From a virus: 35,726 nt of DNA. The notes below the pieces were generated by a model. The model was not told where the DNA came from and ran no database searches. It saw only the letters and a list, made by a program, of their open reading frames with translations. Position numbers and translations under genes: made by a program. Positions 2,277-21,370 of the stretch are shown here, in pieces; the first letter of the stretch is position 1; each line of letters begins with the position of its first letter. The DNA lies in IMG/VR virus record IMGVR_UViG_3300028189_000002; one strand, given 5' to 3'.

Positions 2277-2344
2277 CGTTTTTAAAAAACTGAAAAATTC
2301 ATTTACTCGAAATCACTCACTTTTGAAAATAGGAGAAATTCAAA

Positions 2345-3963: not shown

Positions 3964-4416
3964 CTACCAAAGGTCCTGGCTGTATAGTTTACTTGAAAGC
4001 ATTAATGTCTCGTCTTGTTTTACCTGTTTGATCTTGATTGCGTGTTTCGCGGCTTCTATCCGGTTTAAAAATGTACCGTTCTTCAATATAAATCCTTCTA
4101 TCATTTCACTTGATCGAATTGGGATGCCCTGAATTATCAGCGCTTTTGCTAAATCTTTATGACATCCCTTTAACATGCTGTGTGTTTCACCTGCAAATCT
4201 AATTACTACTCCGGTTATAAAGCTATCATCTTCCTTGACGTTCTTGATTGAATATTCATAACTACTCGTCTTAGTATTTCCCTTATTGCAATAATCTTCA
4301 TGGAATGTTATTACTCCCTCATAACTTCTTTGCTCTATTAATGATTTCACCATACTTAAATGTTGTGCCAGTTCTTCAATTGTTTCGCCTTTTGCTTCAA
4401 ACTTAATTTCTATCAT
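3964..4416 (-). CDS. hypothetical protein (150 aa), last gene of the accessory operon
   Basis: Track ORF 3964..4449. The internal ATG at 4416 is preceded by AAAGGCAGGTGG (conserved 14-mer plus SD). The C-terminal GF.L.NG.F..R.EA...A...Q...L.S.DLW pattern looks familiar from phage proteins, but I cannot name the family. Confidence 0.55.
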   Translation of the reverse strand: MIEIKFEAKGETIEELAQHLSMVKSLIEQRSYEGVITFHEDYCNKGNTKTSSYEYSIKNVKEDDSFITGVVIRFAGETHSMLKGCHKDLAKALIIQGIPIRSSEMIEGFILKNGTFLNRIEAAKHAIKIKQVKQDETLMLSSKLYSQDLW

Positions 4417-4609
4417 AATGCAATCCACCTGCCTTTCTATAAGTTTCAATAGTAGATTCTATATCTTTTTCCAGTTTCTTGTATGCCAGGAACAAAACTG
4501 TCTTTATCTTTTCATCGTTCTTCATGTCAACTTGATGTACTTTTCCTACAATCTTAAACTTCTTATTATATGCAATCCGTTCAATGTTTAGAATTATATC
4601 TACTTTCAT
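4403..4609 (-). CDS. hypothetical protein (68 aa)
   Basis: Track ORF with a 4-nt overlap to the upstream gene stop (4606). Confidence 0.5.
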   Translation of the reverse strand: MKVDIILNIERIAYNKKFKIVGKVHQVDMKNDEKIKTVLFLAYKKLEKDIESTIETYRKAGGLHYDRN

Positions 4610-4752
4610 TTTCCCTCTGTCATAAATCTATAATGTTTATTTAAAAAGTAACAAAGACTTTTACGTTCATTTCCTTCTGGATACAGGTTCATTGCTATAT
4701 TGATTAAGCAATCACCAATTATTAATCTAAGATTATTTATTATTATTTTCAT
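4606..4752 (-). CDS. hypothetical small protein (48 aa)
   Basis: ATG at 4752 preceded by TTAGAAAGGCGATTT. The track start at 4800 is a TTG that is part of a TTGACA box, so I trimmed it. Confidence 0.4.
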   Translation of the reverse strand: MKIIINNLRLIIGDCLINIAMNLYPEGNERKSLCYFLNKHYRFMTEGK

Positions 4753-4865
4753 AAATCGCCTTTCTAATCGGGTAAGTGTTCCTTGTAGGCCAAGTGTCAA
4801 AATCAGCGGTTAAATTATGCGAAGCATTCCTATGATGTTTTGTTATGCCCCGGTAGGGGTAAATT

Positions 4866-5039
4866 TTATTTCCGCTTATTCTTTCCGTCAATGAATGTTA
4901 GGAAGTTTATACCTGTGTTGTATCTTCTCAGGGCTTCATCTATCAATGGCGGTGAGTTTTTAACTTCTTCTATTGAGATTGATTTCTGTATTGCTAGTTT
5001 TCGTATGGCTTTTTTAGTTGGGCTTTTAAATGTTATCAT
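4866..5039 (-). CDS. hypothetical small protein (57 aa, below the track cutoff)
   Basis: Hand translation gives MITFKSPTKKAIRKLAIQKSISIEEVKNSPPLIDEALRRYNTGINFLTFIDGKNKRK. ATGA start/stop overlap with 5036..5245. It displaces the antisense track ORF 4840..5115. Confidence 0.5.
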   Translation of the reverse strand: MITFKSPTKKAIRKLAIQKSISIEEVKNSPPLIDEALRRYNTGINFLTFIDGKNKRK

Positions 5040-5245
5040 ATTATTCCTTTCCTTTTTAGATTCAGTCTATGTGTTTTATTATTCTCTTTCCTTCTTTCTT
5101 TTGTCCTCGCGATGATATTATACTTCTTGTAATATTCATCTAAATAACTATAAGATGATTTCGTAATATCGTCAGCGTACATTTGATTGTAGTTTTTGTC
5201 AATCGCTACTTGGTGGAGTGTTGTTACTTTGGTTTCTATTAACAT
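5036..5245 (-). CDS. hypothetical protein (69 aa, basic C-terminus)
   Basis: Track ORF with AAGGAG 7 nt upstream of the ATG. Confidence 0.55.
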   Translation of the reverse strand: MLIETKVTTLHQVAIDKNYNQMYADDITKSSYSYLDEYYKKYNIIARTKERRKENNKTHRLNLKRKGII

Positions 5246-5258
5246 CGTGTCTCCTTAT

Positions 5259-5381
5259 TTAATACCCTGTTAAATATCTAAACACTGTCACGATAATTGC
5301 AGTAACTATGAATCTATAAAACCACTTGACATGGTTCTTCCTGTTCCTGAGTCTGATGTATATTTGATTGTATGTCAGCAT
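5259..5381 (-). CDS. hypothetical small membrane peptide (40 aa, below the track cutoff)
   Basis: Hand translation gives MLTYNQIYIRLRNRKNHVKWFYRFIVTAIIVTVFRYLTGY. ATGcTGA overlap with the RadC-like stop. It fills the 5246-5374 gap. Confidence 0.35.
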   Translation of the reverse strand: MLTYNQIYIRLRNRKNHVKWFYRFIVTAIIVTVFRYLTGY

Positions 5382-5848
5382 GATTCCCCTTTTCTGTTAT
5401 ATGTTTCAATTAAACCCTCATCTGCATAGCTGTAATATTCACCATTCCCTAGAATTAAATGGTCTAGTAATTTGATATTCAGCAACTTTCCTGCGTTTAT
5501 TATCTCCTGTGTTATCTTGTCATCTTCACCTGATCTTTTAAGTGATCCGGCAGGGTGGTTATGAATTGCTATTATCGCGCTCGCTCCAAATTGTAATGCG
5601 TTTCGATATATAATCTTTAAATCTACTGTCGCGAAACTTTGCCCACCCGAGAATAATGTTTTAAATCCGTTTATCTCATTCTGTGAGTTTAGGAAAAATA
5701 CTGTAAAGTGTTCCTGATCGTCATCAAGGGTTTTATATATCTCCTTTGCTATCCTGAAACATTGTCTACTATTTAACGTTGTTTCCTTTTCTGCTTCTGG
5801 TTCTGATATTTTCAATGAGATTGTTTTCAGAGTCTTTGTGTAGTACAT
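5375..5848 (-). CDS. RadC-like JAB/MPN-domain protein
   Basis: IAIHNHPAGSLKRSGEDDKIT matches the HNHPSG..PS..D JAB metal-binding signature, followed by LLDHLILG, as in RadC-family proteins. Confidence 0.75.
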   Translation of the reverse strand: MYYTKTLKTISLKISEPEAEKETTLNSRQCFRIAKEIYKTLDDDQEHFTVFFLNSQNEINGFKTLFSGGQSFATVDLKIIYRNALQFGASAIIAIHNHPAGSLKRSGEDDKITQEIINAGKLLNIKLLDHLILGNGEYYSYADEGLIETYNRKGESC

Positions 5849-5857
5849 GATTCCCCT

Positions 5858-6058
5858 TTATAAATTGTAGTTTGTATCAAAATTAAAACAGTTTAACTTC
5901 TCTGCAACTTCATCCTCGCAAGTATCACAGATCCACCAACAATTCTCATGTTCTGGAATGGTGTTATCTTCTCCTTGTTTTACTGTGTCGCATTGTAAGC
6001 ATGTTATTTTTTTTGTTTTGGTCTGTGGTTTGATTGTGGTTGTTATTGTACTATTCAT
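5858..6058 (-). CDS. small Cys-rich (zinc-finger-like) protein (66 aa)
   Basis: Track ORF with C-LQ-C ... C-WWI-C-DT-C spacing. Confidence 0.5.
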   Translation of the reverse strand: MNSTITTTIKPQTKTKKITCLQCDTVKQGEDNTIPEHENCWWICDTCEDEVAEKLNCFNFDTNYNL

Positions 6059-6115
6059 TTTATCCCCTGTCTGCGCGTGTCATCGGTATGCGCGCCCCAC
6101 CATTTAAGATATAAA

Positions 6116-6400
6116 TTAATTCTGTTTCATTTTTAAGCCGGTTAAAATTCCTTTTATCTTTTCGTATAAATCTTTCTTTGTATTGAATCCTGATGTTATA
6201 TCTGATTGACCACTACAACCTTTAGTCAATGACATTCTCACCAGTTTTACTCCACCATAAGCGGAGTCAATCAGATATGTTCCTGTGTTTGGATTGCATC
6301 CTTTTTTGCTGTGGTCGTATGGATCTTTGTCGTGTCCTGTTATATCGTTTATCTGGTCAACCATTTCTTGCAGGTCCTTTATTGATATTCTGGTACTCAT
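6116..6400 (-). CDS. hypothetical protein (94 aa)
   Basis: Track ORF 6116..6460 trimmed to the ATG at 6400, which is preceded by AAAGGAG at 8 nt. The protein starts MSTRISIKDLQEMV. Confidence 0.55.
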   Translation of the reverse strand: MSTRISIKDLQEMVDQINDITGHDKDPYDHSKKGCNPNTGTYLIDSAYGGVKLVRMSLTKGCSGQSDITSGFNTKKDLYEKIKGILTGLKMKQN

Positions 6401-6469
6401 TGTCTCAACTCCTTTGTATATAATATTAAAAAGATATAGTTGTATCGCGTGGGCGATCACTTGTCTTTT

Positions 6470-6682
6470 CTACTTATACATTTTTAATAATGCCTCTTTG
6501 AATTTTATGTCTAATCTCTTTGCTAGGTATCTTACAATGTCTGCCTGTTTTGCTTGCCTCTCTGATATTTCAAATTTTATTTCTTTCATTTGGTTTTTCA
6601 GATTTGTGATTGAATCTCTCTCTTTTAAGAAATCCTCTTTTGAATTTTGGAATATTACTTTTTCTCCTATCGTTGCTGTCAT
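6470..6682 (-). CDS. hypothetical coiled-coil protein (70 aa)
   Basis: Track ORF. The start is preceded by the conserved TTATAGAAAGGCAG 14-mer (6690-6703). Confidence 0.55.
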   Translation of the reverse strand: MTATIGEKVIFQNSKEDFLKERDSITNLKNQMKEIKFEISERQAKQADIVRYLAKRLDIKFKEALLKMYK

Positions 6683-6703
6683 AATTTCCCTGCCTTTCTA
6701 TAA

Positions 6704-6910
6704 TTAATTTTCGTATGGAGATAATATTTCTGTTATGTGTTCGTCAATTTCTGCTTCTGTTCCTGTGAAGAATGGCCTTTGTCCTATTCTTGTTTCGGAT
6801 GGCTCTGCCCCATCTTTTAAACTGTCATGGTCTATGATAAAAATAGAAATTGAATCTTCTGCTTCTAGGTTTGTTACTACTCCGCCTCTTATTTCAACAA
6901 TCATTTTCAT
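6704..6910 (-). CDS. hypothetical protein (68 aa)
   Basis: Track ORF. The start is preceded by the conserved TTATAGAAAGGCAG 14-mer (6920-6933). Confidence 0.55.
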   Translation of the reverse strand: MKMIVEIRGGVVTNLEAEDSISIFIIDHDSLKDGAEPSETRIGQRPFFTGTEAEIDEHITEILSPYEN

Positions 6911-6998
6911 ATTATCAATCTGCCTTTCTATAATCTACAGCCCATTAAAAATCTTGTTAAATTAATATCATTCCTTGCAATAACTCCACCCGAAATAA

Positions 6999-7355
6999 TC
7001 AACCTGCACCAACAACGCGATAGTCCATTACCGTAATCCCTTCTTCCTTGGCGCACTTATGCATATTCTGCGTACCTCTGCCACCAGTGAACAATAACAC
7101 AGCATCGCCATATACCGCCATTTGTTTATTCCTGACTACACCGGCAGACTTGCCCAGGCGCGACCACTCAGCCGGAAATTGTTTCACTGGGATGTCATTA
7201 GCAACTGCCCACAAAACGCCCTCGGAATCTGCACCTGTCGCACCGCCCGTCACGATCTCGGTTATCGTGTGTTTTATACTATCTAACAATTCAATATCGT
7301 CTGCTGTAAATTTATACTGGCGTCCACCTGAAATAATCAGCTTCAAGATTGACAC
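6999..7355 (-). CDS. SLOG-superfamily DUF2493 (YspA-like) protein
   Basis: IISGGR..VTGGATGADSEGVLWA...FPAEW...GKSAGVVRNKQM...LLFTGGRGTQNM matches the DUF2493 pattern GGA.GAD..A..WA / AG..RN..M / G..GT. GTG start overlapping the upstream micro-ORF. Confidence 0.7.
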   Translation of the reverse strand: MSILKLIISGGRQYKFTADDIELLDSIKHTITEIVTGGATGADSEGVLWAVANDIPVKQFPAEWSRLGKSAGVVRNKQMAVYGDAVLLFTGGRGTQNMHKCAKEEGITVMDYRVVGAG

Positions 7356-7474
7356 CGTTTTTTATCTGCTAACGCTTCCTTGTGGCACTTCGGACACATG
7401 CTGTAACCGCTGATAAATATTAAACGCTGACCTTCTGCACCGCATCCATCACATTGACTCTCTGTATTATCCAT
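7343..7474 (-). CDS. zinc-ribbon micro-protein (43 aa, below the track cutoff), first gene of the accessory operon
   Basis: Hand translation gives MDNTESQCDGCGAEGQRLIFISGYSMCPKCHKEALADKKRCQS, with CxxC..CxxC spacing. It overlaps the start of 6999..7355 by 13 nt. Confidence 0.45.
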   Translation of the reverse strand: MDNTESQCDGCGAEGQRLIFISGYSMCPKCHKEALADKKRCQS

Positions 7475-7516
7475 AATAAAAACCTGCCCTTTCTTTAAAA
7501 TCCTCTATAAAAAAAA

Positions 7517-7552
7517 CCGGAAAAATCACTTTCCCTTTTTCCGGCTTTTTTT
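7517..7552. terminator. Strong bidirectional intrinsic terminator
   Basis: CCGGAAAAA (7517-7525) pairs with TTTTTCCGG (7536-7544). It is flanked by A7 upstream and CT7 downstream, so the - strand reads hairpin + T8 and the + strand reads hairpin + CTTTTTTT. Confidence 0.7.
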
Positions 7553-7742
7553 CTTTAGTTAAAAACTCTTTTATTCCTATAGTCTGTTTTGTATTTATCT
7601 TGCGAATATTAAATCTCACCCTAGTTGGACCATACTGGTAGATTCAATCCTCACATGAAGCAAGAGAAATATACTAAAGATAAGTGACGATTAGGTAGTT
7701 GGTTTTTTAGTTAATATTCGTGATAGCTTGAGGGAATATTCA

Positions 7743-7771
7743 TCTAAAAACTGTATAAGTTAATAGCTCAA
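7743..7771 (-). promoter_or_regulatory. Candidate sigma70-like promoter for the leader and accessory operon
   Basis: The - strand reads TTGAGC (7771-7766), 17 nt, then TTTAGA (7748-7743). The -10 is weak and this is the only passable match in 7553-7790. Confidence 0.2.
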
Positions 7772-7790
7772 TATTAATCTTTTTGAAAAT

Positions 7791-7810
7791 AAGTTTCGCG
7801 AAACTTTTTT
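7791..7810. terminator. Palindromic terminator downstream of the PKD gene
   Basis: Perfect 16-bp palindrome AAGTTTCGCGAAACTT (7791-7806) with T-runs on both strands, about 105 nt after the stop at 7917. Confidence 0.55.
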
Positions 7811-7916
7811 CTAAGCAGAGCGTAAAGATTTAAAGCTGTTAGATTTTAAATACCTTTAAGCTGAGTGAAGCGAAGTAGGAAATTTTTTATGAGGGTTGTG
7901 CAATTAGAAATGATTG

Positions 7917-8855
7917 TTATGGTGTTGGGTCTGTAACATCAAAGTTTTCTGTAGGGTTTTCAGCCGTGGAGAATTCTACATAGGGTGCGTTTATACCAGA
8001 TGGCCTACGTTTCCAGCTCCATGCAGTAGAAGCACCTGATAAATCCGTGAAGGTACTATCAATATCATCTAATCCTTTGCGTAGATCTGCGGAGAAATCT
8101 GCTTCGGGGTCGTTTACTGTGATGTAACTTGCTTTAGTTTCAACGTCATTATTACCTGCCGCAAATGTGTGTTTATATATTCGTGGTGCTGATGCAATAT
8201 CCCATCCATTTTTATTTGGACTACTTGGTGAGCTTAGTATTGTTGGCGCACTTTCACCGCCACCTGATGGTTCAAAGGTTCTTGTTATACTTGTTCCTGC
8301 AAAAGCTGTAACATCTTCAACGAATAAATCTGTGAAGAATGGCGCACCTGTAGAGGGTAATATCATTCCTGATTCAATAAACTTTATACCGTTTTCTGGT
8401 CCTTGTACTGTAGAAAAAGGAATTCTAAATTCAATTATATGAGAAGTAAAAGATGTTAAGTCGAGTCCTAGTGTTGATTTTGCTTGTCTGTATGTGTATG
8501 TTCCTGATAGATTCCTTACATCGTATCTACCTTGAACTGAAGAAGCTCCAAAACTTGCCGCTAGTAATGCTACATGTGCGGCCGCGTTTGATCCTGCTGA
8601 TCCTGTTCTTTGTAATCTACTTACACTTGTGCCATTTGTAACGGTTTCTCCTGATGATGTGAATGCTCTCAATGTTACAGTGTAAGTACCTGCCACTGTA
8701 TAGACATGAACAGGGTTTTGTACGTTAGAAGATCCACCGTCACCGAAATTCCATAGCCAGTTTGTGGGAGATCCGGTAGAAGTATCAGTAAATGTAACCG
8801 TTAAATCTCTTGCACCTGTTTGAACATCTGAAGTGAATGCCGCGACTACTGCCAT
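7917..8855 (-). CDS. PKD/Ig-like domain virion surface protein (312 aa)
   Basis: The N-terminus LTVTFTDTSTGSPTNWLWNFGDGGSSNVQNPVHVYTVAGTYTVTLRA is a canonical PKD repeat. A second degenerate PKD-like segment lies at the C-terminus (DFSADL..STFTDLS..WSW). Confidence 0.7.
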   Translation of the reverse strand: MAVVAAFTSDVQTGARDLTVTFTDTSTGSPTNWLWNFGDGGSSNVQNPVHVYTVAGTYTVTLRAFTSSGETVTNGTSVSRLQRTGSAGSNAAAHVALLAASFGASSVQGRYDVRNLSGTYTYRQAKSTLGLDLTSFTSHIIEFRIPFSTVQGPENGIKFIESGMILPSTGAPFFTDLFVEDVTAFAGTSITRTFEPSGGGESAPTILSSPSSPNKNGWDIASAPRIYKHTFAAGNNDVETKASYITVNDPEADFSADLRKGLDDIDSTFTDLSGASTAWSWKRRPSGINAPYVEFSTAENPTENFDVTDPTP

Positions 8856-8864
8856 ATTATTATC

Positions 8865-9764
8865 CTATAAGTAAGGGCTGATACTAACTGAAATAAAATT
8901 CCGCTTCTCTCCGACAAATTCTTCACCGTCAATAGTAACCGTCAATTGTATATCCCATTCTTGAATTGCCCATTCTGGTGTCCGTCTACGGTAAAATGCG
9001 CTCAAGGTTTTCTGCATGAATGCTTGATACGCTCCCATCGGTGGGAACAGAGCCAAGTACCAGTGTTCTTTCTTTGGTCTTGGCCCAATGCCAATAGGTA
9101 TTTCTCCGGTAGCTGGTTGAATGTTCCAGGTTGCAACCGCTTTATCTTTGAAGATCCTCTTAGTTTCATCACTTCCGATTAATAAACTTGCCCAATCGAT
9201 TGCGGCTGAATGTTTTTCTATGAGATTTGCCCGGTCAATCTTTAATCGTTCTGATGTTTTACTCGGTTGGTTATTAGCATTATCAATTTCATAATCCCTG
9301 AATCTTCTTCTGAATCTTGTCCTCGGGGTTTTCCCTTTCCTGAATCGTTCTTTCTTTACTTTAGATTCTTTCTTTCTGGTTGAAGTATTACTGACTCCAT
9401 CTTTCTTTTTCTTCTTCCCCTTGTTATTATCAATCCGCTTCTGTTTCTTATTAAACTTCTCTAATCTAAAGTCTTCGTCAGCCTCTAAATCAAAGGGCCA
9501 TTTTATATTACTTGGTGTGAAGAAATCTGGATCTGTATCATAATGCTCAATTTCCCTTAACTCCATTTCCATGAATAGATTAGTGTGTGCTATCTGTAAT
9601 CGTTTATTCTTTGGATCTATGAGATGTTGAAGCTCAACTCTATTGTGGGCTCGTATTAATAATATGGTTGGGAGTGAATGAACGTATGATTTATTTAACA
9701 AACTGGTAGAAAGCGTACCGATGTCTGCTGAAGTAATAGTTTGCGTTGTTTTATTTTCTGCCAT
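8865..9764 (-). CDS. hypothetical protein with an extremely basic central segment (299 aa)
   Basis: Track ORF. Central segment KKQKRIDNNKGKKKKKDG..RKKESKVKKERFRKGKTPRTRFRRRFR. It sits between connector-like and PKD genes. Confidence 0.6.
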   Translation of the reverse strand: MAENKTTQTITSADIGTLSTSLLNKSYVHSLPTILLIRAHNRVELQHLIDPKNKRLQIAHTNLFMEMELREIEHYDTDPDFFTPSNIKWPFDLEADEDFRLEKFNKKQKRIDNNKGKKKKKDGVSNTSTRKKESKVKKERFRKGKTPRTRFRRRFRDYEIDNANNQPSKTSERLKIDRANLIEKHSAAIDWASLLIGSDETKRIFKDKAVATWNIQPATGEIPIGIGPRPKKEHWYLALFPPMGAYQAFMQKTLSAFYRRRTPEWAIQEWDIQLTVTIDGEEFVGEKRNFISVSISPYL

Positions 9765-9776
9765 GATTAAGGATTA

Positions 9777-10238
9777 TCAATAAAAGTCCATTTTCCTGAA
9801 AGCCTTACTCGGATTCAATCGATTACCGTCACGATCTTTCTTAGATAAAGCAACTGTTGGCTCGACTCCTGCGTTGGTTGAAGTAATCTTGTCTAATTCT
9901 GTCGAACTGTCCGGACCTGTAGCCATGATACGTAACTTGTTTATCAAACTCTTAGCTTCCTGAAAGAACGGATTGTATGTAGCGAACTCGAAACCTGCTG
10001 TAGTTGAATTAGATTTCAGTATCATACCAACAGCATAATTCGCTTCAGCCATTACAATGGTCTTAGATACAGTGCCGGTAAATGGAACAGTGTACCTATC
10101 TCTGAGGTTGTCATTCACCCAATCGTATGCTAAGGCACGTTCAAGTGCAAAGTCGCTTAGAGAGAGCGAATACCCGGGCGTTGTAGCTATGCCATGAAAC
10201 AACTGGTCAAGCTCCGCGTCTGTACTATATGTCGCCAT
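9777..10238 (-). CDS. head-tail connector/adaptor-like protein (gp6/DUF1320-like)
   Basis: MATYSTDAELDQL..ALERALAYDWVNDNLRDRYTVPF resembles the Y-t-aDl ... RY.vP N-terminal pattern of Mu gp36/DUF1320-type adaptors. AGGAGGA SD at 10246-10252. Confidence 0.4.
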   Translation of the reverse strand: MATYSTDAELDQLFHGIATTPGYSLSLSDFALERALAYDWVNDNLRDRYTVPFTGTVSKTIVMAEANYAVGMILKSNSTTAGFEFATYNPFFQEAKSLINKLRIMATGPDSSTELDKITSTNAGVEPTVALSKKDRDGNRLNPSKAFRKMDFY

Positions 10239-10277
10239 TTACTTATCCTCCTGAATAATTGATGTAATTTCTCTGTG

Positions 10278-10306
10278 ATTTAATACGAAATAATATAGAT
10301 TGTCAA
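10278..10306 (-). promoter_or_regulatory. Candidate promoter of the - strand structural unit
   Basis: The - strand reads TTGACA (10306-10301), 17 nt, then TTAAAT (10283-10278), about 35 nt upstream of the SD and ATG at 10238. Confidence 0.35.
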
Positions 10307-10358
10307 TGTTAAAACGGTATAACTGTACGTAATATATAATGGTTGTTGATTAGATAGG

Positions 10359-10423
10359 TGTGACAAAATGTCAAAAAGATGTAAGTCCTTGTGACAAAAT
10401 GTCAAAGAGTGTGTCAATGTCAC
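10359..10423. promoter_or_regulatory. Operator-like palindromes (TGACA-AAA-TGTCA)
   Basis: The identical 17-mer TGTGACAAAATGTCAAA occurs at 10359-10375 and 10390-10406, a 31-bp spacing. A related GTGTCAATGTCAC lies at 10411-10423. Confidence 0.5.
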
Positions 10424-10554
10424 GTTTGGATAGGTAAACAGTGGGTGCAGGAAATTTGCTGCGCACTTTGGCCTTGCCTACACTGCGTGCGAACACTTCT
10501 GTTCGGAATATTCTTGCGCAGGAATTTCGCAAAAAACATTAAAAAAGCTCTTTT

Positions 10555-10583
10555 TTGACCCTTTTTGGCCCTTTTGTGATCAT
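10555..10583 (+). promoter_or_regulatory. Candidate extended -10 promoter reading into the structured non-coding block
   Basis: TTGACC (10555-10560), 17 nt, then TGt-GATCAT (10575-10583). Confidence 0.3.
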
Positions 10584-10589
10584 GTCCAA

Positions 10590-10831
10590 AATCGTAGTTT
10601 TTGAGGGGTGGTGGTCGGGATAAGGAGCGTAGTAATAGAGAGGTCATTAATAAAATGTGAAGATAACATAAAGCACATTATGTTAGGCTGTAAGCCGGTA
10701 TCAATAAGAGTAGCTTTCTGTCAGATAACTAGTTAGTTATCGGATGGCAAGCGTTGGAAGGTTCAATTGATGGTAGGAATACCGCTTCACATTTTATTAG
10801 TGGGCGAACGCCTCCGCTGGCTTTTGTTTTT
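10590..10831 (+). ncRNA. Candidate ~240-nt structured RNA (unknown class)
   Basis: A 15-bp perfect closing helix pairs 10648-10662 with 10785-10799, extendable to 19 bp with G-U pairs. It encloses three local hairpins: 10664-10685, 10686-10696 and 10724-10741. An upstream promoter-like site and the downstream T-tract TTTTGTTTTT (10822-10831) flank it. No ORF is present. Confidence 0.3.
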
Positions 10832-10900
10832 AAATAGATTGGTTCATTTGAGCCGTTGCTTCTGGTAAATAAAAACGTGTCGTTTTTTATTTATAATGTA

Positions 10901-11023
10901 TGCCGGCTACTCCCTGCCAGCCCAGAGGAAAGTAACCTCAACAAACAAAGAAAATAATACCTTTAATAATAATATATACTTTTGAATAGAATGGGTGGGG
11001 CTGGCCGAGGGAGGGGGATGGCA
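10901..11023. other. GC-rich long-range helix (second candidate structured element)
   Basis: 10901-10905 pairs with 11019-11023. CTCCCT 10910-10915 pairs with AGGGAG 11008-11013. GCCAGCCC 10916-10923 pairs with GGGCTGGC 10998-11005. Together these are about 19 bp closing a 74-nt AT-rich loop. TATAAT lies just upstream at 10892-10897. Confidence 0.3.
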
Positions 11024-11343
11024 TATAAGAAATAACATTGAGCGTTTAGCGAACACCATATTGTAGTTCTTCGTATAAAATGATTAACATAGTATGTTCA
11101 TCTTTTTATATATTAAACAACAATGAGCCTGTCGAGGATTCAGTCTTTATCGAATCCAGGCGAATACTTTTATCAATCTTCCTTCCAAATAAACCATCCA
11201 CACTAATCAAGCTGAGAGTAATCGAAGCGTAGCAAATCATTCATCCAATATAAATCCACCTCACTAATATAAACATGCATCCGAATTCTTTTAATTAAAG
11301 AACAATGAGCTATCCTTATTTTTTTTATTAATAGCGAATTCAT

Positions 11344-11387
11344 CTAAGTAAAAATTTTTATACCTAAGTATAAAAAAAATTTTTATA
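11344..11387. repeat. Tandem A/T-tract direct repeat inside a very AT-rich 340-bp block (11320-11660)
   Basis: CTAAGTAAAAATTTTTATA (11344-11362) and CTAAGTATAAAAAAAATTTTTATA (11364-11387). The surrounding sequence has A8/T6-8 tracts (11496-11550). Confidence 0.7.
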
Positions 11388-11665
11388 GAAAAATATTTTA
11401 AAGGAACACCAATGACGTATTCTTTTTTTCTTATAGTAGAAGAAAGATAAGGTAGAAAGATTGTAGATCCTACTTCCGAATGCTATGTGATTATCAATCA
11501 ATCAAAAAAAAATTTAAAAAAAATCAAAAATAAATTTTTTACTTTTAAAAAATTAATATACTGACTCACATAAATATACTTCCGTGTAAGACTCATTTAA
11601 AATTATTGATAATCTATATATATCTATTTAATCAACTCACCCTCCAAAATAACACTTTTTTTATA

Positions 11666-11694
11666 TTGACTTGCGTAAGCTGTTATGATAAGAT
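11666..11694 (+). promoter_or_regulatory. Near-consensus sigma70-type promoter of the long + strand operon
   Basis: TTGACT (11666-11671), 17 nt, then TGa-TAAGAT (11686-11694). The ATG at 11702 begins 8 nt after the -10. Confidence 0.55.
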
Positions 11695-11701
11695 ATGCAT
11701 T

Positions 11702-11926
11702 ATGAAAATGATTGATACTATACAGGAAATGATTTATGGATTTGAAAGGGATAAAGGGGTTGTGCCGACTGAGATATTTATACCTGTCCTTGATTATCTA
11801 ATTTTAAAAGAAGAAGCTGAACCATTTCTTTTAAATGAGAAGCCACAAGATAGGGAATTAATGAAGATATGCGGATTGGCAATTGAACAAACCTACTCTG
11901 AATTGGGTGTGTACTTAGAATCTTAA
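11702..11926 (+). CDS. hypothetical protein (74 aa), probably translated from a leaderless mRNA
   Basis: Track ORF 11606..11926 trimmed to the in-frame ATG at 11702 (MKMIDTIQEMIYGF..). The upstream part runs over the promoter and is low-complexity. There is no SD. Confidence 0.5.
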   Translation: MKMIDTIQEMIYGFERDKGVVPTEIFIPVLDYLILKEEAEPFLLNEKPQDRELMKICGLAIEQTYSELGVYLES

Positions 11927-11992
11927 TTTTGCGGTTATGATATAGTTGTTGTTAATTGTTACTGGTGTTTAATCTTTTTTGGAGAATGTAAT

Positions 11993-12361
11993 ATGAATTG
12001 TGATACTGGTAGATTTGAGAATTTTAATAGTGGTGATGATATTAAGCCTCCGTGGAGAGAGTGGTCGGTTGACGAGTTGATTGTGGTTAAGGATGAAAAT
12101 ACGAAGAAGTTGGTTATGTCCAGGTTGCTGGTTGGTAATCGTAGCGGTGGGGTGTTGGTACATAAGAACCAGATTGACATATTATCTGCAGGTAGGATTA
12201 AGGCTATGCAGGGTAGAAGGCACCGAAGACTTATACTAATATTTATGTTGATGAACCGATTATATGTTTTGATTCAAAGAGTCTGTTTGATTTGTATGCG
12301 CTGGTTGCTGATAGGAAGGTTGAGCAGACTTTTATATTTTTGGGGTTATAGGTATGGATAA
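11993..12361 (+). CDS. hypothetical protein (122 aa as written; the 3' third may be frameshifted)
   Basis: GGAG lies 8 nt upstream. The N-terminal 75 aa look protein-like. The C-terminal RRHRRLILIFMLMNRLYVLIQRVCLICMRWLL looks like off-frame sequence, while the -1 frame reads KTYTNIYVDEPIICFDSKSLFDLYALVADRKVEQTFIFLGL. Confidence 0.45.
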   Translation: MNCDTGRFENFNSGDDIKPPWREWSVDELIVVKDENTKKLVMSRLLVGNRSGGVLVHKNQIDILSAGRIKAMQGRRHRRLILIFMLMNRLYVLIQRVCLICMRWLLIGRLSRLLYFWGYRYG

Positions 12362-12461
12362 GGAATTTATAATTATGGTGTTGAGGTATGTGATCCCGGG
12401 TGTGTGCTTGGTTGTAATGGTGGGGTTGGGTGTTTTGTTTGTGAAGGGTAGGGGGGAATGA
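12354..12461 (+). CDS. putative membrane micro-peptide (35 aa)
   Basis: Hand translation gives MDKEFIIMVLRYVIPGVCLVVMVGLGVLFVKGRGE. It links the neighbouring ORFs through overlapping start and stop codons. Confidence 0.3.
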   Translation: MDKEFIIMVLRYVIPGVCLVVMVGLGVLFVKGRGE

Positions 12462-12634
12462 GATACTACAAAATATCATTCAGGATGTTTAAGAAGAATT
12501 GTGCGCATAGGTTGTATGTTAAAGGTAATTGTGCTGAACTATATGAATATGATGTCCGTATTAGAGTAGATGTTCATACTAAATGCACCGAGGCTAATTG
12601 CCCTGTGTTAAAGAAATTGGAGGAAGTGAAATGA
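12458..12634 (+). CDS. putative 4-Cys small protein (58 aa, below the track cutoff)
   Basis: Hand translation gives MRYYKISFRMFKKNCAHRLYVKGNCAELYEYDVRIRVDVHTKCTEANCPVLKKLEEVK. ATGA overlaps occur at both ends. Confidence 0.4.
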   Translation: MRYYKISFRMFKKNCAHRLYVKGNCAELYEYDVRIRVDVHTKCTEANCPVLKKLEEVK

Positions 12635-12933
12635 GTGATGCACCTGAGAGGATATGGGTTGAGAATCTAAATGCAAATTACAGACATTCGAGTAATTGTT
12701 CTTTGACTGACCCTAAATTAGATCCACAAGATCATAGGGTTATGGATGAATATATAATCAAAGATACTGCGGATAAAGAGATGGAGAAAATCTTACAGCC
12801 GATAAGGGATGTGATGAAAATAAGATACGTTGATTCAGGAAATACTTTAGATCAATGTAATGATAAACGTACAGAACTTCTTAATATCAAACAGGCTGTA
12901 TATGCAACTATTTCAATTGCGGATAATAAATAA
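12631..12933 (+). CDS. hypothetical protein (100 aa)
   Basis: Track ORF 12598..12933 (TTG start) trimmed to ATG 12631, 7 nt after GGAGG. The protein starts MSDAPERIWVENL. Confidence 0.55.
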   Translation: MSDAPERIWVENLNANYRHSSNCSLTDPKLDPQDHRVMDEYIIKDTADKEMEKILQPIRDVMKIRYVDSGNTLDQCNDKRTELLNIKQAVYATISIADNK

Positions 12934-12997
12934 GTACCATCCATTCAAGGCGTATATGCGAGCAATCGCTTGATTCGAGAAAGGGAGTCGATGGGGT

Positions 12998-13195
12998 ATG
13001 TGCCTTGAGTTGATAGTATTTATGAGCGATAAGAAAGAAAAATTTACGGAAGAAGATATAGTTGATTGTTGGGATGCTCATGTGTTTTACTTGATGGGTA
13101 TACTGAACGGTGATTATAATATTGATGAAGCTCGGGAAGACCTAAGAAGTTTGATTGGTAGTAAATACGATCCTAGATTAATTGTGGGGAAATAG
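12998..13195 (+). CDS. hypothetical protein (65 aa)
   Basis: Track ORF with GGGAG about 9 nt upstream. Confidence 0.45.
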   Translation: MCLELIVFMSDKKEKFTEEDIVDCWDAHVFYLMGILNGDYNIDEAREDLRSLIGSKYDPRLIVGK

Positions 13196-13198
13196 ATA

Positions 13199-13354
13199 AT
13201 GATATGTCCTAATTGTTTGAAGAATATAAGTGATAAGGTGGTTGGTCGGTATTGGGGCGCGAAGGGTGGTAGTAAGTCTAAGCGTGTGATTACTCCGGAA
13301 CAACAAGTTAAAATGCAGGAGGGTAGGAACGATGCGAAACAGAGAAGAAGTTAA
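13199..13354 (+). CDS. hypothetical small basic protein (51 aa, below the track cutoff)
   Basis: Hand translation gives MICPNCLKNISDKVVGRYWGAKGGSKSKRVITPEQQVKMQEGRNDAKQRRS. Confidence 0.4.
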   Translation: MICPNCLKNISDKVVGRYWGAKGGSKSKRVITPEQQVKMQEGRNDAKQRRS

Positions 13355-13359
13355 GTATA

Positions 13360-13485
13360 ATGAAAGGCATCAGTGTAATAAGTGGGTTGGTGTTGCGTTT
13401 TGGGTGTGTGTGTTTATTGTTACTTTGTATTTGTGTTGTGATTGATTATGGAAAGGAAGGGCGATATGAATGTAGAGGCGTTTGA
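13360..13485 (+). CDS. putative Cys/Val-rich membrane micro-peptide (41 aa)
   Basis: Hand translation gives MKGISVISGLVLRFGCVCLLLLCICVVIDYGKEGRYECRGV. Confidence 0.25.
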   Translation: MKGISVISGLVLRFGCVCLLLLCICVVIDYGKEGRYECRGV

Positions 13486-13657
13486 TTCAGTAAAGTGGAC
13501 AGGGCAAATGAGAGTGGAGTATAAGAATAAGATTTATGATGTAGCCTCTGTCGATTTTGAAGAAAGACTTATCGGTATTAGCGGTTATTGTGATGGTGGC
13601 GATGAAAGCGATGTGCAATGGATAAGATGTGAAAATGCTGTAATAAACAAATTATAA
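13466..13657 (+). CDS. hypothetical protein (63 aa)
   Basis: Track ORF 13442..13657 (TTG start) trimmed to ATG 13466, which follows AAGGAAGG. Confidence 0.45.
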   Translation: MNVEAFDSVKWTGQMRVEYKNKIYDVASVDFEERLIGISGYCDGGDESDVQWIRCENAVINKL

Positions 13658-13664
13658 AATAACT

Positions 13665-15194
13665 ATGGAAACTGAAACGAAAATAGACTTACTTGAACTT
13701 CTTCCGAAAAACTTCCTGCAGATAATCAAGGAACATATATTCGAGTACAATCTATACCCATATCAATTGGCAGATCTATTAGTTGAGCTTGAAGATATAT
13801 TATTCGGACATGGGAATTCACTTACTCGTGAACGCGCCCGGCAAACTGGTAAAACTGCATCAATTACAATACTAACTCTATCCTGTATGACTCTATTCCC
13901 TGCACTTGCTCAATCGGAAAAGTATTTAAAGCTATTCCCGAGTTTACATTTATTCAAGGATGGGTTTAGTATTGTAATTGTGGCACCGAAAATTGATCAA
14001 GCGAAGATAACACTACGGAGATTAAAGGGTATATCGCAGAAAAAGAACTATAAGAAGCTTATGGCCGAGCTCGGTATTGAAGTTATAAACAAATCTCTGT
14101 TCTTATTCTCGCTATCTAACGGATCTTCTATCGTTGCGATGTCCGGGAACCCTAAATCGGTTACTGAGGGTGAATCCGCGCACCTTTTAATCTTTGACGA
14201 AGCACATCAGATAGTACCTTACTCATGGCATAAGGCGTATTCACCTATGGTATCGTCAACAAACGGAACTATTGTGTCATTTGGGATCTCCTGGACCGCG
14301 AAACTGTCATTCTACAATCAAATACAGATTAATAAGAAGCTTGGACTGCACTCAAGGATACCGTACATGGAAGCACAGAAGTATTCTAAGTATTACAAGA
14401 AGTGGATTATGAATGAATTGTCTCGAATCGGTAAGGATTCTATTGAATTCCAGTTAAATTTCCTTCTCGTTTGGCTATTAAAGACTACAAATCCGATTAC
14501 TCCGGAGCTTTGGGATGACATTGATATGCTTGGTGATTATAAACCGGGTGAAATTACTTCAGATAATCTATATGTTGGGATAGATTGGGGCAAAACTCAC
14601 AATAATACCTTTGTTACTGTGGTAGAAAAGGCTTTAAACTGCTTGAAAATGGTGGATTTACTTGAATTAACTGGTGATGATTACCCTCAACAGCATATTG
14701 CTATACAAGTTTTCCTGAATAAGTACCCGAGATTGAAGAAAATCTGGTCAGAATCTACCGGAGTCGGCGATACTAACACCGATTTCCTCATTGCGATCTT
14801 TGGAAGTAAGGTTCAGCCGGTCACAGCGTACAATTTACCTATGTTACATGATAAAATGCTGAACGAAATTAACTATAAACGGTTGATTCGGCCCAAAGTT
14901 AAGGATGCCGGTCCCTGGAAATCACTCACAAGGCAGTTTTTGAACTGCGAAAAGATATATCACGGATCATCTTTTAAACTTGTGGCGCCTCAAGGTGCGG
15001 ATGAACAGGATGATGCTATCGATTCGTGTGGGTTGGCAGTCGGTGCCGCACTGAATGACCAGTTATTTGATTTTGTTTACAGGAAATCTACTGCGATTAA
15101 TGAAAGATTGAATACTTTAGCGAATGATCGGGTGATTAAGAGTGGTGAAGGTAGGAGTCGGAGTGGTACTGAGAAGCATATTAGTAATTATTAA
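13665..15194 (+). CDS. terL: terminase large subunit
   Basis: 509 aa. Walker A-like RQTGKTAS and Walker B LLIFDEAH. C-terminal RNaseH-like nuclease segments YVGIDWGKTHNNTFVTVVE and DDAIDS. Typical size and position at the head of the morphogenesis genes. Confidence 0.85.
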   Translation: METETKIDLLELLPKNFLQIIKEHIFEYNLYPYQLADLLVELEDILFGHGNSLTRERARQTGKTASITILTLSCMTLFPALAQSEKYLKLFPSLHLFKDGFSIVIVAPKIDQAKITLRRLKGISQKKNYKKLMAELGIEVINKSLFLFSLSNGSSIVAMSGNPKSVTEGESAHLLIFDEAHQIVPYSWHKAYSPMVSSTNGTIVSFGISWTAKLSFYNQIQINKKLGLHSRIPYMEAQKYSKYYKKWIMNELSRIGKDSIEFQLNFLLVWLLKTTNPITPELWDDIDMLGDYKPGEITSDNLYVGIDWGKTHNNTFVTVVEKALNCLKMVDLLELTGDDYPQQHIAIQVFLNKYPRLKKIWSESTGVGDTNTDFLIAIFGSKVQPVTAYNLPMLHDKMLNEINYKRLIRPKVKDAGPWKSLTRQFLNCEKIYHGSSFKLVAPQGADEQDDAIDSCGLAVGAALNDQLFDFVYRKSTAINERLNTLANDRVIKSGEGRSRSGTEKHISNY

Positions 15195-16617: not shown

Positions 16618-17760
16618 ATGGCGCATAAAACACCAAAGACACCTGCGAGTAGTAGAAAAGCAGTAACGACAAAAGCTAAGAAGAAAAAAGGTGAGAAGTT
16701 TGAACCGTATATAACTAATAGTAAGATATTAGGGACCTTTGAATTTGATCTTCGCTCTCCTGATAAAGTCCTCGAACAGGAAGGGTTTAAATATTATAAT
16801 GAAATGCTGTCTACTGATGCTCATGTGTATAGTGTGATTAATACTCGTAAACTCGGTGCGGCTTCTATACCCTGGCAGATAATACCAAAGGATAGTTCGC
16901 CTGAAGCACTTCTTCAAGCAAACTTTATATCTTTCCTTTTAAACGAAATCCCCATTGAAAACCATTTCTATGATATTCTTGATGCGATCCCTATGGGATT
17001 TTCCATGCACGAGATAATACCTTCTGAAAATCTTCAACGCGGTGAGTTTAAAGGTAAGATAATAATTGATAAGTTGATATTTCATACTCAGGAGTTATTT
17101 GTATTCAAGGCTAATAAAAAAATCGGGTTTGAAATGTTCTACAAGCCGAGTACCTTTGGTCAAGAAAAACCTTTACCGGAAAGTAAGATACTCCATGCGA
17201 ACTTTGATTCAAATTCGCCATACGGAAAACCACTATTAGAGAAATTATATTGGTTTTATTGGTTTAAAAAGGAAACCGGGTTTAAATTTTGGGCCATATT
17301 CCTTGAAAAGTTTGGTGGTCCTACTGCCGTTATGAAATTTCCTTCTGGTGATACGTCATCTGCGTTACAAACTGCCGCGAATACCGCACTGGATGAATTA
17401 CAGAATAGTACCGGAATATCTATTCCAGATTCGTTCCAGCTTGACTTCGCCAAAGTATCTCAAGGTGATGTCAGTTACCCGACCATGATTGATTATTGTA
17501 ATGCGGAAATGTCCAAAGCTACATTAGGAGCCACGCAAACTGTGGAAGAAGGTAGACGAGGCTCATACGCATTGTCAAGGACTCATGCTGATGTTCGATC
17601 TGAATATAAGATCCATGATACCCGGGTACTTCGTAAAGCAATACAGACTCAAATTATTAACAGGTTTATAAATATGAATTTTGCCAATCCACTTCCTCCT
17701 TCAATCAAATTCCAATATCCAGAGTTACCAGTAGAAGCACCTATACGCGGTGAACGCTAA
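16618..17760 (+). CDS. portal protein (Mu gp29/DUF935-like), short form
   Basis: 380 aa, downstream of terL. YNEMLSTDAHVYSVINTRKLGAASIPWQIIP resembles the DUF935 portal N-terminal core. Lys-rich N-terminus. Confidence 0.55.
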   Translation: MAHKTPKTPASSRKAVTTKAKKKKGEKFEPYITNSKILGTFEFDLRSPDKVLEQEGFKYYNEMLSTDAHVYSVINTRKLGAASIPWQIIPKDSSPEALLQANFISFLLNEIPIENHFYDILDAIPMGFSMHEIIPSENLQRGEFKGKIIIDKLIFHTQELFVFKANKKIGFEMFYKPSTFGQEKPLPESKILHANFDSNSPYGKPLLEKLYWFYWFKKETGFKFWAIFLEKFGGPTAVMKFPSGDTSSALQTAANTALDELQNSTGISIPDSFQLDFAKVSQGDVSYPTMIDYCNAEMSKATLGATQTVEEGRRGSYALSRTHADVRSEYKIHDTRVLRKAIQTQIINRFINMNFANPLPPSIKFQYPELPVEAPIRGER

Positions 17761-18178: not shown

Positions 18179-18207
18179 TTGACAAATCAGAACTGTTCGT
18201 CTTTATT
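18179..18207 (+). promoter_or_regulatory. Candidate internal promoter
   Basis: Consensus TTGACA (18179-18184), 17 nt, then TTTATT (18202-18207). It is preceded by an AT-rich hairpin at 18140-18166. The ATG at 18215 begins 8 nt after the -10. Confidence 0.4.
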
Positions 18208-18214
18208 CATATTT

Positions 18215-21200: not shown

Positions 21201-21370
21201 CATTGTTCCTTAGTGAGCCGCTTGATATTGAACAGCAGGAATTCAATAGCTCAATGGGTAACGGTAACTCTGAAGATAAACTTCACAATGAGGTTACTGC
21301 TCTATCCGAAAAGGATAATTGCTCTTACAAAGTTGCATTTGATAAGTTGATGGTCCTAAAAAGCAAGTAA
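18215..21370 (+). CDS. Giant prohead protease-scaffold fusion with a ~690-aa N-terminal extension (1051 aa)
   Basis: The C-terminal third reads KLGHDESQ..GFPSAGWITGLKRKG..LLAYFSNVP..IESGAYKRISAEIY (Mu I-like prohead protease pattern), followed by an acidic coiled coil (scaffold-like). The N-terminus has GAGSGNFGHKGRPGIRGGS plus a Gly/Ser tract and five ~40-aa repeats. The track TTG start at 18179 is the -35 box, so I trimmed to ATG 18215. Confidence 0.6.
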   Translation: MKMNIPFPKHREHLNFSHGNKGTPDYKKLISQCKNNGKCPVSEVIDYGGAGSGNFGHKGRPGIRGGSVSVGGGTSGGSSGGGQSSVGTAQRTDSGTQKTTDIERSGNTTGGGPAITTQTIKQVANQFPGGSGTPIDDSDVTDEEAEEISRQIEAGEIEPDDGSISDAIEELRNARGISDPDIVERGSSGEGDDFTPDELGVVPEILETPETSDSADQEFNNGISITGSPTIPDFFPSSPQEETVVRKMINNGDVEDSEESIKQTVRDMRGIRKQLLQIPTDIPGKNSVGTDIMLGDTLSNDEAGILTGQINSGEIKSDTNSIIEALGNIRGEAISIPAIPENTKLNELSTSIETGDIDTKSLAKTLRDVTMNALATGPGLAIDAIRKKSDSGIAEKLDNAINSADVPAETLITLELMKGSGLTNVPFFANMTEGLLEAALSKAPDKIKDIKKQYKSMIGDLKGANETFIKQVKKDIDVVKKDIDDPEGFKDRMLKEANEIKAKAAEFLSNMKDVFTGDQSLSAVMNDLMTNELTTSQLKRPTPLPDTEDRMSILETSLAPTEKLTKAESNFLRNMVDGGEIAPGNDAFKEILDILRQAVEDNVNNGGIEDTEKAREIYIDLLDNRNIGPDGRLGSPGNPRSTVPFNNTENLYKLAESCPVTADSGCPLFLSTFAENENKDIGWMEVFEFDDSNVLGMLVKNFKKLKSKLSPPIKLGHDESQKLVQNSGFPSAGWITGLKRKGTTNKLLAYFSNVPNPIVKLIESGAYKRISAEIYNNYVDPDTHKAFGPTMRAVSILGADVPRIKTLKDLAIIYNSDGLPYKTFQKEEIGMDVIMQMIEALKEELSKLAGLDKAEDTEQVQEAVEALQEKFGEAADAFTALSESQNKEINKLLKANKKKVTLTGNDPDTLKLSETIDTQASLITQLSESVKTIGSELKGAQDHILESKKASVKATLSKNFSPALVEKAMPLINFSEGEDKVVDLLTAMQKMQEESALFLSEPLDIEQQEFNSSMGNGNSEDKLHNEVTALSEKDNCSYKVAFDKLMVLKSK

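Follow-up and report, generated by a model that had tools for sequence, protein, structure and literature searches.

The 35,726-nt stretch of IMG/VR record IMGVR_UViG_3300028189_000002 (hereafter the window, on which all coordinates are given) looks like a complete ~35.7-kb tailed-phage genome, in which a 1.46-kb noncoding gap separates a leftward from a rightward gene block. An initial annotation, made from the letters alone, had proposed a structured RNA of ~240 nt inside this gap. Is such a fold real, on which strand and in which nucleic acid does it form, and what might it do? Our analysis reveals an uncatalogued ~155-nt structured noncoding element, termed element A (10644-10803, + strand), that forms a genuine, evolutionarily maintained, strand-specific multi-helix fold closed by a long helix, P1. 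The structure of element A is solid; the biological role considered below is one suggested by sequence comparison.

Architecture and conservation of element A

P1 was first noticed as a perfect 15-bp helix, and so it is: TAATAAAATGTGAAG (10648-10662) and CTTCACATTTTATTA (10785-10799) are complementary throughout. The suggested extension to 19 bp with G-U pairs was reproduced by RNAfold, which pairs the 5′ strand (10644-10662, + strand) with the 3′ strand (10785-10803) and includes the two wobbles U10644-G10803 and U10647-G10800. A repeat finder recovered these arms as an 18-nt inverted repeat (10645-10662 and 10785-10802; 94% complementary, 122 nt between) and ranked it first within the 3.5-kb neighbourhood; covariation also supports the 3′ strand. 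Inside P1, the three nested hairpins of the initial annotation are all in place on the + strand, and each has a counterpart in the relatives. The first, H1 (10664-10685; UAACAUAA-AGCACA-UUAUGUUA), pairs TAACATAA with TTATGTTA at 10664-10671 and 10678-10685 and is backed by both fold and alignment. The second, H2 (10686-10696; GGCU-GUA-AGCC), comes from the fold and pairs GGCT with AGCC at 10686-10689 and 10693-10696. The third, GATAACT/AGTTATC (10724-10730 and 10735-10741), has 7 bp and a 4-nt loop and stands atop two more helical segments (10718-10722/10743-10747 and 10713-10716/10749-10752), the whole forming the core hairpin P3 (10713-10752; GCUU-U-CUGUC-A-GAUAACU...AGUUAUC-G-GAUGG-C-AAGC), which is near-invariant in nine contigs. 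A fourth helix, P2, had been overlooked; its 5′ strand CGGUAU (10696-10701) pairs, tentatively in the window, with AUACCG (10779-10784). The 3′ strand of P2 belongs to a variable segment (10753-10784, + strand), delimited by fold and alignment, that forms two local hairpins in the window (10753-10767 and 10772-10783, the latter with a GGAA loop). Beyond the window these hairpins are kept in one relative (contig L033) only, and elsewhere the segment has 6 to 21 nt of unrelated sequence.

The significance of folding was assessed with 200 dinucleotide shuffles per test. For the 251-nt span that corresponds to the extent proposed initially, z-scores were -3.0 (+ strand) and -3.7 (- strand). For a 164-nt domain, RNA folding gave z = -7.1 (-55.6 kcal/mol) on the + strand and z = -7.0 (-42.7 kcal/mol) on the - strand, and DNA parameters gave z = -7.7 (+) and -6.5 (-), with 0 of 200 shuffles as good in each case. 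The + RNA fold is better than that of the - strand by 13 kcal/mol. Thus, folding goes beyond shuffled controls, and the shuffle tests together with covariation in relatives bear out the expectation that an inverted repeat with such nested hairpins did not arise by chance.

Nine distinct copies of element A were found: in the window and in contigs L003, L015, L016 (= L027), L025, L026, L028, L030 and L033. The relatives were reached by look-ups with a neighbouring 153-aa protein and the large terminase TerL, by scans for the core TTTCYGTCnGATAA...TTATCnGAnnGCAA, and by a covariance model. This model, built from seven copies (training scores 121 to 147 bits), detected two non-training copies, L030 (82.7 bits) and L033 (108.2 bits), and gave one hit in the window and one per contig. 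The carriers constitute a small clade of uncultured ~35-kb tailed-phage contigs from marine sediment, and in every one of them element A is single-copy and located in an equivalent large noncoding gap beside divergent early promoters. The L033 copy is nearly identical to that of the window.

Searches of wider collections returned little. BLASTN of the gap DNA (window gap and L025 region) against 50,697 GenBank phages gave no match, and the best cultured TerL match in the same set has <30% identity. A TerL-based locus search in IMG/VR found no locus, a core-motif scan of IMG/VR returned the L003/L010 contig only, plus chance matches, and the scan of metagenomes returned four contigs. The core motif and the G-rich arm of a neighbouring element B were absent from the GTDB set (185,579 species), which offered no prophage or host clue. 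Phages further removed (L018-L024, L032 and L034-L036), which have TerL or the 153-aa protein in common with the clade, differ in the early or replication region and lack element A.

All copies share the order P1 - H1 - H2 - P2(5′) - P3 - variable segment - P2(3′) - P1(3′). In the relatives, P1 is wholly different in sequence yet paired (TGGCAAAG, GTGGCGGGGG, AGCTGAAG, ATCTGAAG and AAGCCAAAG), and further variants across the copies are all paired as well (UAAUAAAAUGUGAAG, UGGCAAAG, GUGGCGGGGG, AGCUGAAG and AUCUGAAG); 11 of 13 P1 pairs are doubly changed in the nine-sequence alignment. P2 of the relatives is 8 to 17 bp long with unrelated sequences (GAAAUAUAUAUCCGGC, GAAAUUUC, AAAAUAUUUAUGUGUGA and others), and double changes affect 6 of its 9 modelled pairs. 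The H1 stem ACAUAA/UUAUGU is kept in 9/9 copies with a varying loop; in the model (helix 2) 98.8% of its cells are paired, 3 pairs are doubly changed, and L028 has U-G for C-G. Counterparts of H2 are GGGC-GUA-GCCC (L033), UCC-GAA-GGA (L003, L025 and L028), and CCUUU-N6-AAAGG (L016, L026 and L030), a covariation judged by eye, as H2 lies outside the covariance-model structure. P3 remains close to AGCUUUCYGUCnGAUAAU...AUUAUCnGAYRGCAAGCG; even so, compensatory swaps occur in it, from GCUU/AAGC to GUUU/AAAC (L016/L026) and to GCUCU/AGAGC (L030). Taken over all helices, 96.5% of cells in the model-fitted nine-sequence alignment are standard pairs, as against 38 to 47% when the 3′ partners were slid by 1 to 3 columns. 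Double changes occur at 25 of 48 pairs in the nine sequences, and column shuffles reached the observed values in 0 of 500 cases. Furthermore, an unfitted MAFFT alignment analysed with RNAalifold gave compensatory changes at 20/48 pairs, the kind of support that the initial annotation had named as a check on its helices.

Folding strand and comparison with known elements

Which strand folds can be read from the wobble pairs. In an eight-sequence alignment, G-U occupies 22 cells of the modelled pairs, spread over 12 positions, and A-C occupies 3, all of them in the two outermost P1 columns. A fold of the - strand, or a decaying palindrome of double-stranded DNA (dsDNA), would give near-equal classes; the large excess of G-U therefore indicates that it is the + strand that folds. 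Specifically, the core wobble G10720-U10745 (model pair 92-118) is G-U in 7/9 copies and G-C in 2/9. The pair beside it is U-G in the window (U10719-G10746), L025 and L033, and a tandem 5′-UG/3′-GU is formed in the window and L025. Such tandems are stable and common in RNA, and costly in DNA. The conserved core wobble and the tandem thus favour RNA, and from these sequence features element A is likely to be RNA rather than single-stranded DNA (ssDNA).

Element A matches no known RNA class, as had been suspected from the sequence. Rfam 15 (4227 models) gave 0 hits for the whole window at the gathering threshold, and a search of 10200-13700 at E<=10 gave only chance-level matches to NEAT1_2 (14 bits versus 60) and EGFOA-assoc-1 (14 versus 224). 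In six relatives searched at E<=1, nothing was found on element A, element B or the G-rich domain that neighbours them. ARAGORN found 0 tRNA or tmRNA genes in the window. Orphan Rfam phage motifs from metagenomes resemble element A in that they occur in uncultured contigs only, are defined by covariation and could be RNA or ssDNA, but none of the 4227 models matches it.

Among closed phage RNAs, one that it resembles in shape is the packaging RNA (pRNA) of the phi29 family, a ~120-170-nt RNA with a long 5′/3′ closing helix around a multi-helix junction, whose sequence is poorly conserved and whose structure is conserved. The long closing helix and multi-helix body of element A are alike. In contrast to phi29, which has its own type of packaging ATPase and connector, the phages carrying element A package by a TerL-type large terminase with a Mu-like portal. 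Element A also has no complementary or conserved loops for ring formation, does not lie at a genome end and gave no Rfam pRNA match. Element A lacks hallmarks of every family that could be put to the test, and we rate it as a new family; in function it would resemble origin-directed primer or activator RNAs, or single-strand initiation elements.

Possible roles of element A

The setting of element A bears on its role. Twin palindromes stand at the left of the gap, and rightward of them come a conserved box, phased T-tracts, a G-rich stub and element A, followed by a small hairpin with a T-run, element B, and then a tract of 27 to 31% GC. Element A always has the same orientation: the leftward operon, the operators and the conserved box flank it to one side, a repeat array or AT-rich tract lies to the other, and the G-tract elements occupy its own strand. 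On these grounds, we consider that there is an even chance that element A is the RNA domain of a noncoding transcript running from the divergent control region toward the repeat/AT-rich tract, which is probably an origin. The scaffold would then consist of P1, P2, H1 and H2, and a phage or host protein could recognise the invariant P3 with its internal loops and G-U.

The most likely role for such a transcript, suggested tentatively by analogy, would be that of a cis-acting origin RNA. Activation or priming of the neighbouring origin by the transcript would depend on the fold of element A together with the same-strand flanking G-tract elements, much as in ColE1 RNA II or in lambda transcriptional activation, both of which are precedents for origin-directed noncoding transcription (PMC5043065). 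Such a role would fit the finding of neither a primase nor a DNA polymerase gene in this phage: screening with Pfam and PHROGs, which covered about half of the larger open reading frames (ORFs), detected no domain of either kind and none of a reverse transcriptase or integrase. The likeness to ColE1/pMB1 RNA II (and lambda) would lie in a noncoding transcript aimed at an origin, with a multi-stem fold deciding the outcome, G-rich RNA segments for a persistent hybrid and reliance on host polymerases (PMC5043065). However, element A has no sequence or structural homology with these systems, and a site for RNase H or for a primer could not be recognised. A ColE1-type primer RNA has a promoter upstream of the origin, a lasting RNA-DNA hybrid there and a countertranscript (RNA I) from the opposite strand. 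Element A points toward the repeat array or AT-rich tract and has G-tracts on its strand. No RNA I-like antisense promoter is conserved in it; the sole - strand hit (TTGATA-16-CATAAT) occurs in the window only, is made of non-conserved P2 sequence and was rejected. Furthermore, the direct-repeat arrays of the relatives suggest an initiator protein, which ColE1 lacks.

A doubtful extension of the origin-transcript reading would join element A, the G-rich domain and element B in one noncoding RNA of 0.5 to 0.9 kb that fires the origin via a G-tract/R-loop-stabilised hybrid. Such an origin would be RNA-primed in the manner of ColE1 or of mitochondria, through an entirely novel fold. In a less developed variant, P3 would mimic the origin repeats as RNA or ssDNA and titrate the initiator, having ATTATCA in common with the GGATTATCATT repeat variant. 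The P3 stem in most relatives is TGATAAT/ATTATCA, the centre of that repeat variant, and the window stem is AGATAAC (10724-10741); this identity may be a coincidence, as P3 does not co-vary with the repeat type.

Several observations weigh against an RNA transcript directed at an origin. The fold is equally significant with DNA parameters, DNA hairpins tolerate G-T pairs, and the copies have no conserved GNRA or UNCG loops or K-turns in common. No sigma-70-type promoter lies at a fixed distance upstream of element A in the other eight contigs, the -10 of the conserved box is poor and variable, and the terminator-like stem has only 4 bp. The window itself has no repeat array, so that the origin is deduced from relatives and AT-richness. 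Only nine sequences from one narrow clade are available, and in L003 element A and element B stand in swapped order, i.e., the position of element A relative to its neighbours can vary. The window has a weak P2, a 6-bp alternative absent from the minimum-energy fold; forcing it costs 3 to 5 kcal/mol relative to that fold with its two local hairpins. Since P2 is cut to this 6-bp alternative in the window and L033, the window copy is somewhat atypical around P2. Finally, two of the alignments follow the covariance model, which somewhat inflates their pairing counts; the unfitted alignment and the two independently detected copies agree with the model-fitted result.

If element A is RNA, it would represent a new covariation-supported family of phage noncoding RNA from an uncultured marine-sediment clade, sitting where replication and early transcription are controlled. 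Small and well defined, this module consists of a covarying scaffold around an invariant helix that keeps a G-U pair. Element A could thus provide a handle on how replication starts in phages without their own primase or polymerase, and on the use of G-tracts and R-loops at phage origins. The family alignment and covariance model are ready for RNA-family databases.

Alternatively, though we find it rather unlikely, element A may be an ssDNA structure of the origin region, whose + strand folds when single-stranded, by origin unwinding or rolling-circle displacement, and serves as an initiation signal. It could then act as a single-strand initiation (ssi) signal of the G4/phiX type, as a primosome or helicase loading site, or as an ssDNA promoter, with single-strand origins of rolling-circle plasmids and Frpo as further models. 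A strand- and orientation-specific fold that adjoins a repeat array or AT-rich tract, with the DNA-parameter z of -7.7 and without a conserved upstream promoter, would be in keeping with this. So would the conservation of stems (GATAAT/ATTATC and ACATAA/TTATGT) and not of loops, which is expected if a protein reads duplex-like DNA. Likewise, ssi elements, Frpo and the plasmid single-strand origins are folded, strand- and orientation-specific bodies with duplex-mimicking stems near replication functions, and known ssi and Frpo elements have been sought in regulatory regions of 50 to 350 bp (PMC11541004). An ssi signal, primosome assembly site or single-strand origin supports, in one orientation, the priming of complementary-strand synthesis on ssDNA; of this, element A shows the orientation specificity of the fold. 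An entry site for host primase or RNA polymerase would also be useful to a phage in which no primase was found among the screened ORFs. However, the core wobble (G-T in DNA) is kept in 7/9 copies and 22 wobble cells are kept overall, though G-T weakens DNA hairpins. Frpo is defined by a stem carrying -35-like and -10-like hexamers at promoter spacing (PMC11541004), whereas no -35/-10 pair is conserved in the stems of element A: P1 and P2 are unrelated between copies, and P3 offers the -10-like GATAAT only. Moreover, the carriers are dsDNA tailed phages with a TerL-type terminase, not conjugative or rolling-circle replicons, and no rolling-circle Rep was found among the screened proteins. No similarity to ssi sequences was seen via Rfam matches, no BLAST against known ssi having been made. 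Were element A nevertheless ssDNA, ssi-type elements would be extended to tailed dsDNA phages.

It is also unlikely that element A is a stand-alone, trans-acting, stable small RNA, for instance one that captures a protein as a sponge or decoy, or that acts in anti-defence or regulation, in which the long P1 protects the ends and the proximity of the origin is incidental. Stable RNAs that bind proteins, 6S, Y RNA and pRNA among them, typically have closed folds with paired ends, and element A is compact and closed, with paired 5′ and 3′ ends. Its invariant helical core suggests a protein partner, and a hairpin with a U-run lies 3′ of P1 in 7/9 contigs, including the window. It moreover behaves as an autonomous module, whose position relative to element B varies (L003) and directly after which a gene can be inserted (L033). 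In contrast, no promoter is conserved directly 5′ of P1, no gene for a partner protein is consistently adjacent, and no complementarity to a target came to light, no search aimed at it having been made.

Finally, it is highly improbable that element A is a dsDNA palindromic operator or cruciform for a dimeric phage protein, with the outer repeat as the ends of an insertion like a miniature inverted-repeat transposable element (MITE): the L003 core CTGTCTGATAAT-N4-ATTATCAGACAG is a perfect 12-bp palindrome, the region is rich in other operator-like palindromes and the position of element A differs in L003, but such sites should be conserved in sequence, whereas P1, P2 and H2 change completely with complementarity kept, the asymmetries are nearly all G-U-compatible on one strand (22 versus 3), and there is a single copy per genome and no transposase, so that covariation and strand asymmetry largely refute it. 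MITE or transposon ends were also rejected on the single covariance-model hit per genome and the unrelated P1 sequences of the copies.

Four other identities were tried and discarded. A riboswitch or cis-acting leader is not compatible with the gene order, as the first + strand gene of the window lies ~900 nt off behind its own TTGACT-17-TAAGAT promoter, and L016 and L030 have no gene downstream in the direction of element A. A 42-aa GTG-initiated ORF (10608-10736) overlaps element A, but other copies show non-triplet indels, stops and compensatory substitutions. A retron msr-msd, which has a1/a2 closing repeats and a reverse-transcriptase gene beside it, would share the closing repeat; no reverse transcriptase domain was found among the screened window ORFs, and no gene is consistently adjacent. 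For a bridge or guide RNA, no recombinase or nuclease gene is adjacent.

Flanking elements and the phage genome

The promoter-like site of the initial annotation, TTGACC-17-(TG)GATCAT (10555-10583, + strand), lies in the phased T-tract segment and passes a consensus scan with 9/12 matches. The scan gave 11 such sites in the region versus 7.9 expected, so that this match alone means little, and the site occurs in the window only, being missing even from the closest relative, L033. With that promoter absent in L033, and no sigma-70-type site at a conserved distance in the other eight contigs, the ~240-nt transcript limits proposed at the outset could not be upheld.

What is conserved upstream of the fold in all nine contigs is a box, TTGCTGCGCACTT (10456-10484, + strand), in which TACACT follows 17 nt past TTGCTG. 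Its consensus, TT(G/A)CTnC(G/A)YACTT, lies 112 to 570 nt upstream of element A in 9/9 contigs, and the box TTGCTNCGCACTT precedes element A in the latter's direction. It reads TTGCTG-17-TACACT in the window and TTGCTC-17-TACACT in L033, the -10-like hexamer being variable elsewhere. L030 has one further match and L016 has two, all of them palindromic and operator-like. Judged by its sequence, the box is a candidate for an alternative rightward promoter or a protein-binding site at the start of the noncoding unit.

On the other side, a small hairpin GGCG-AACGCCUC-CGCU followed by GGCUUUUGUUUUU (10804-10831, + strand) appears terminator-like in the consensus scan (10797-10830). In 7/9 contigs (window, L033, L028, L030, L016, L026 and L025) the fold is followed by the counterpart (A/G)GCG-N4-8-CGC(U/C), in most cases accompanied by a U-run. 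The GC hairpin and T-run seen initially are therefore conserved in six more contigs, but a 4-bp stem would be a weak terminator; a weak terminator or a protein-binding motif (AGCGAAC-type) is possible. Relative to the window, L033 has an insertion at ~8820-9075 (- strand) that carries a promoter-like site (TTGCAA...TATAAG, early-promoter type) and a 55-aa gene, exactly between the T-run of element A and the AU-rich hairpin preceding element B. Insertion right after the hairpin suggests a unit boundary there, and a transcript of ~240 to 340 nt is possible.

Upstream of element A, the G-rich segment UUUUGAGGGGUGGUGGUCGGGAUAAGGAG (10599-10627, + strand), with what looked like a Shine-Dalgarno remnant, turned out instead to be the stub of a larger G-rich domain, to whose first motif in the relatives it is homologous. 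In the relatives this G/T-rich domain occupies 110 to 500 nt (L003 3500-3641(-), L025 1700-1818(-), L028 2760-2945 and L016 4183-4323(-), for example), and the window and L033 retain the stub only. It contains repeated AGCTT(T/A)CGGGTGGGTGGG and GCTGCTAC motifs plus a UGAGCC/GGCUCA hairpin, and is conserved in sequence with almost no covariation (2/24 pairs). Pairing of the stub with the post-P1 hairpin, as in the 251-nt minimum-energy fold, was rejected, since it is not kept in L033.

Element B (10902-11022, + strand) is a second strand-specific long-range helix in which 10902-10923 pairs with 10993-11022 around a ~70-nt A-rich loop. Its mid-helix covaries between the window and the relatives. 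The 3′ arm carries a four-tract G-quadruplex-type motif, GGGTGGGG-N6-8-GGG-N-GGGGGATGGCATA, common to the window, L003, L015, L025 and L033, with a variant in L028. Element B may be part of the same transcript as element A.

Downstream of element A, five relatives (L033 at ~7440-8250(-), L003 at ~2320-3070(-), L016, L026 and L030) have 10 to 13 direct GATTACCATT-like repeats, whose spacing of ~80 to 95 bp is unusually wide for iterons. In place of arrays, L015, L025, L028 and the window have other short repeats or an AT-rich tract.

At the left end of the gap, the repeat finder identified the twin operator-like palindromes TGTGACAAAATGTCAAA (10359-10375 and 10390-10406), 31 bp apart. Each carries TTGACA on the - strand, near the start of the leftward gene for the 153-aa protein, and the relatives have other palindromes at the equivalent site (ATATAGGGAATCTTTCC, GTGGCATATGCCAC and TGCAGGAAWTTWACTGCA). 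The leftward gene block of the window spans 3964-10238, and rightward genes begin at about 11703, downstream of the good TTGACT-17-TAAGAT promoter mentioned above. The genes for the 153-aa protein, a ~300-aa protein and a PKD-domain protein form a block (window 7917-10238) that is leftward and adjoins the gap in the window, L003 and L033; in L015 it is leftward too and lies farther from the gap. In L002, L016 and L030 it lies immediately upstream of the terminase and points the same way; the block has thus been inverted or relocated inside the clade. A tRNA gene is present in L026 (3702-3776, + strand; Rfam tRNA, 68 bits) and has no counterpart in the window.

The window encodes TerL (13665-15194; PHROG 2/9), a portal protein (16618-17760; Mu-type by Pfam in relatives), an XPD-like helicase, Dam, RadC, ERCC4 and PD-(D/E)XK nucleases, and AAA_24. 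GC skew is very strong (+0.28 to +0.58) at 12001-13500, across small rightward early genes whose coding strand has far more G than C. A 1063-aa ORF (18179-21370) matches head-maturation protease PHROGs in its C-terminal ~350 aa, and the counterpart of this protease region in L015 is a separate 470-aa gene; the ORF is possibly a fusion or a large scaffold-protease protein. A protein 100% identical to the TerL of the window has been deposited as 'MAG: hypothetical protein [Candidatus Scalindua sp.]', and the 38% GC of the window would fit a Candidatus Scalindua host.

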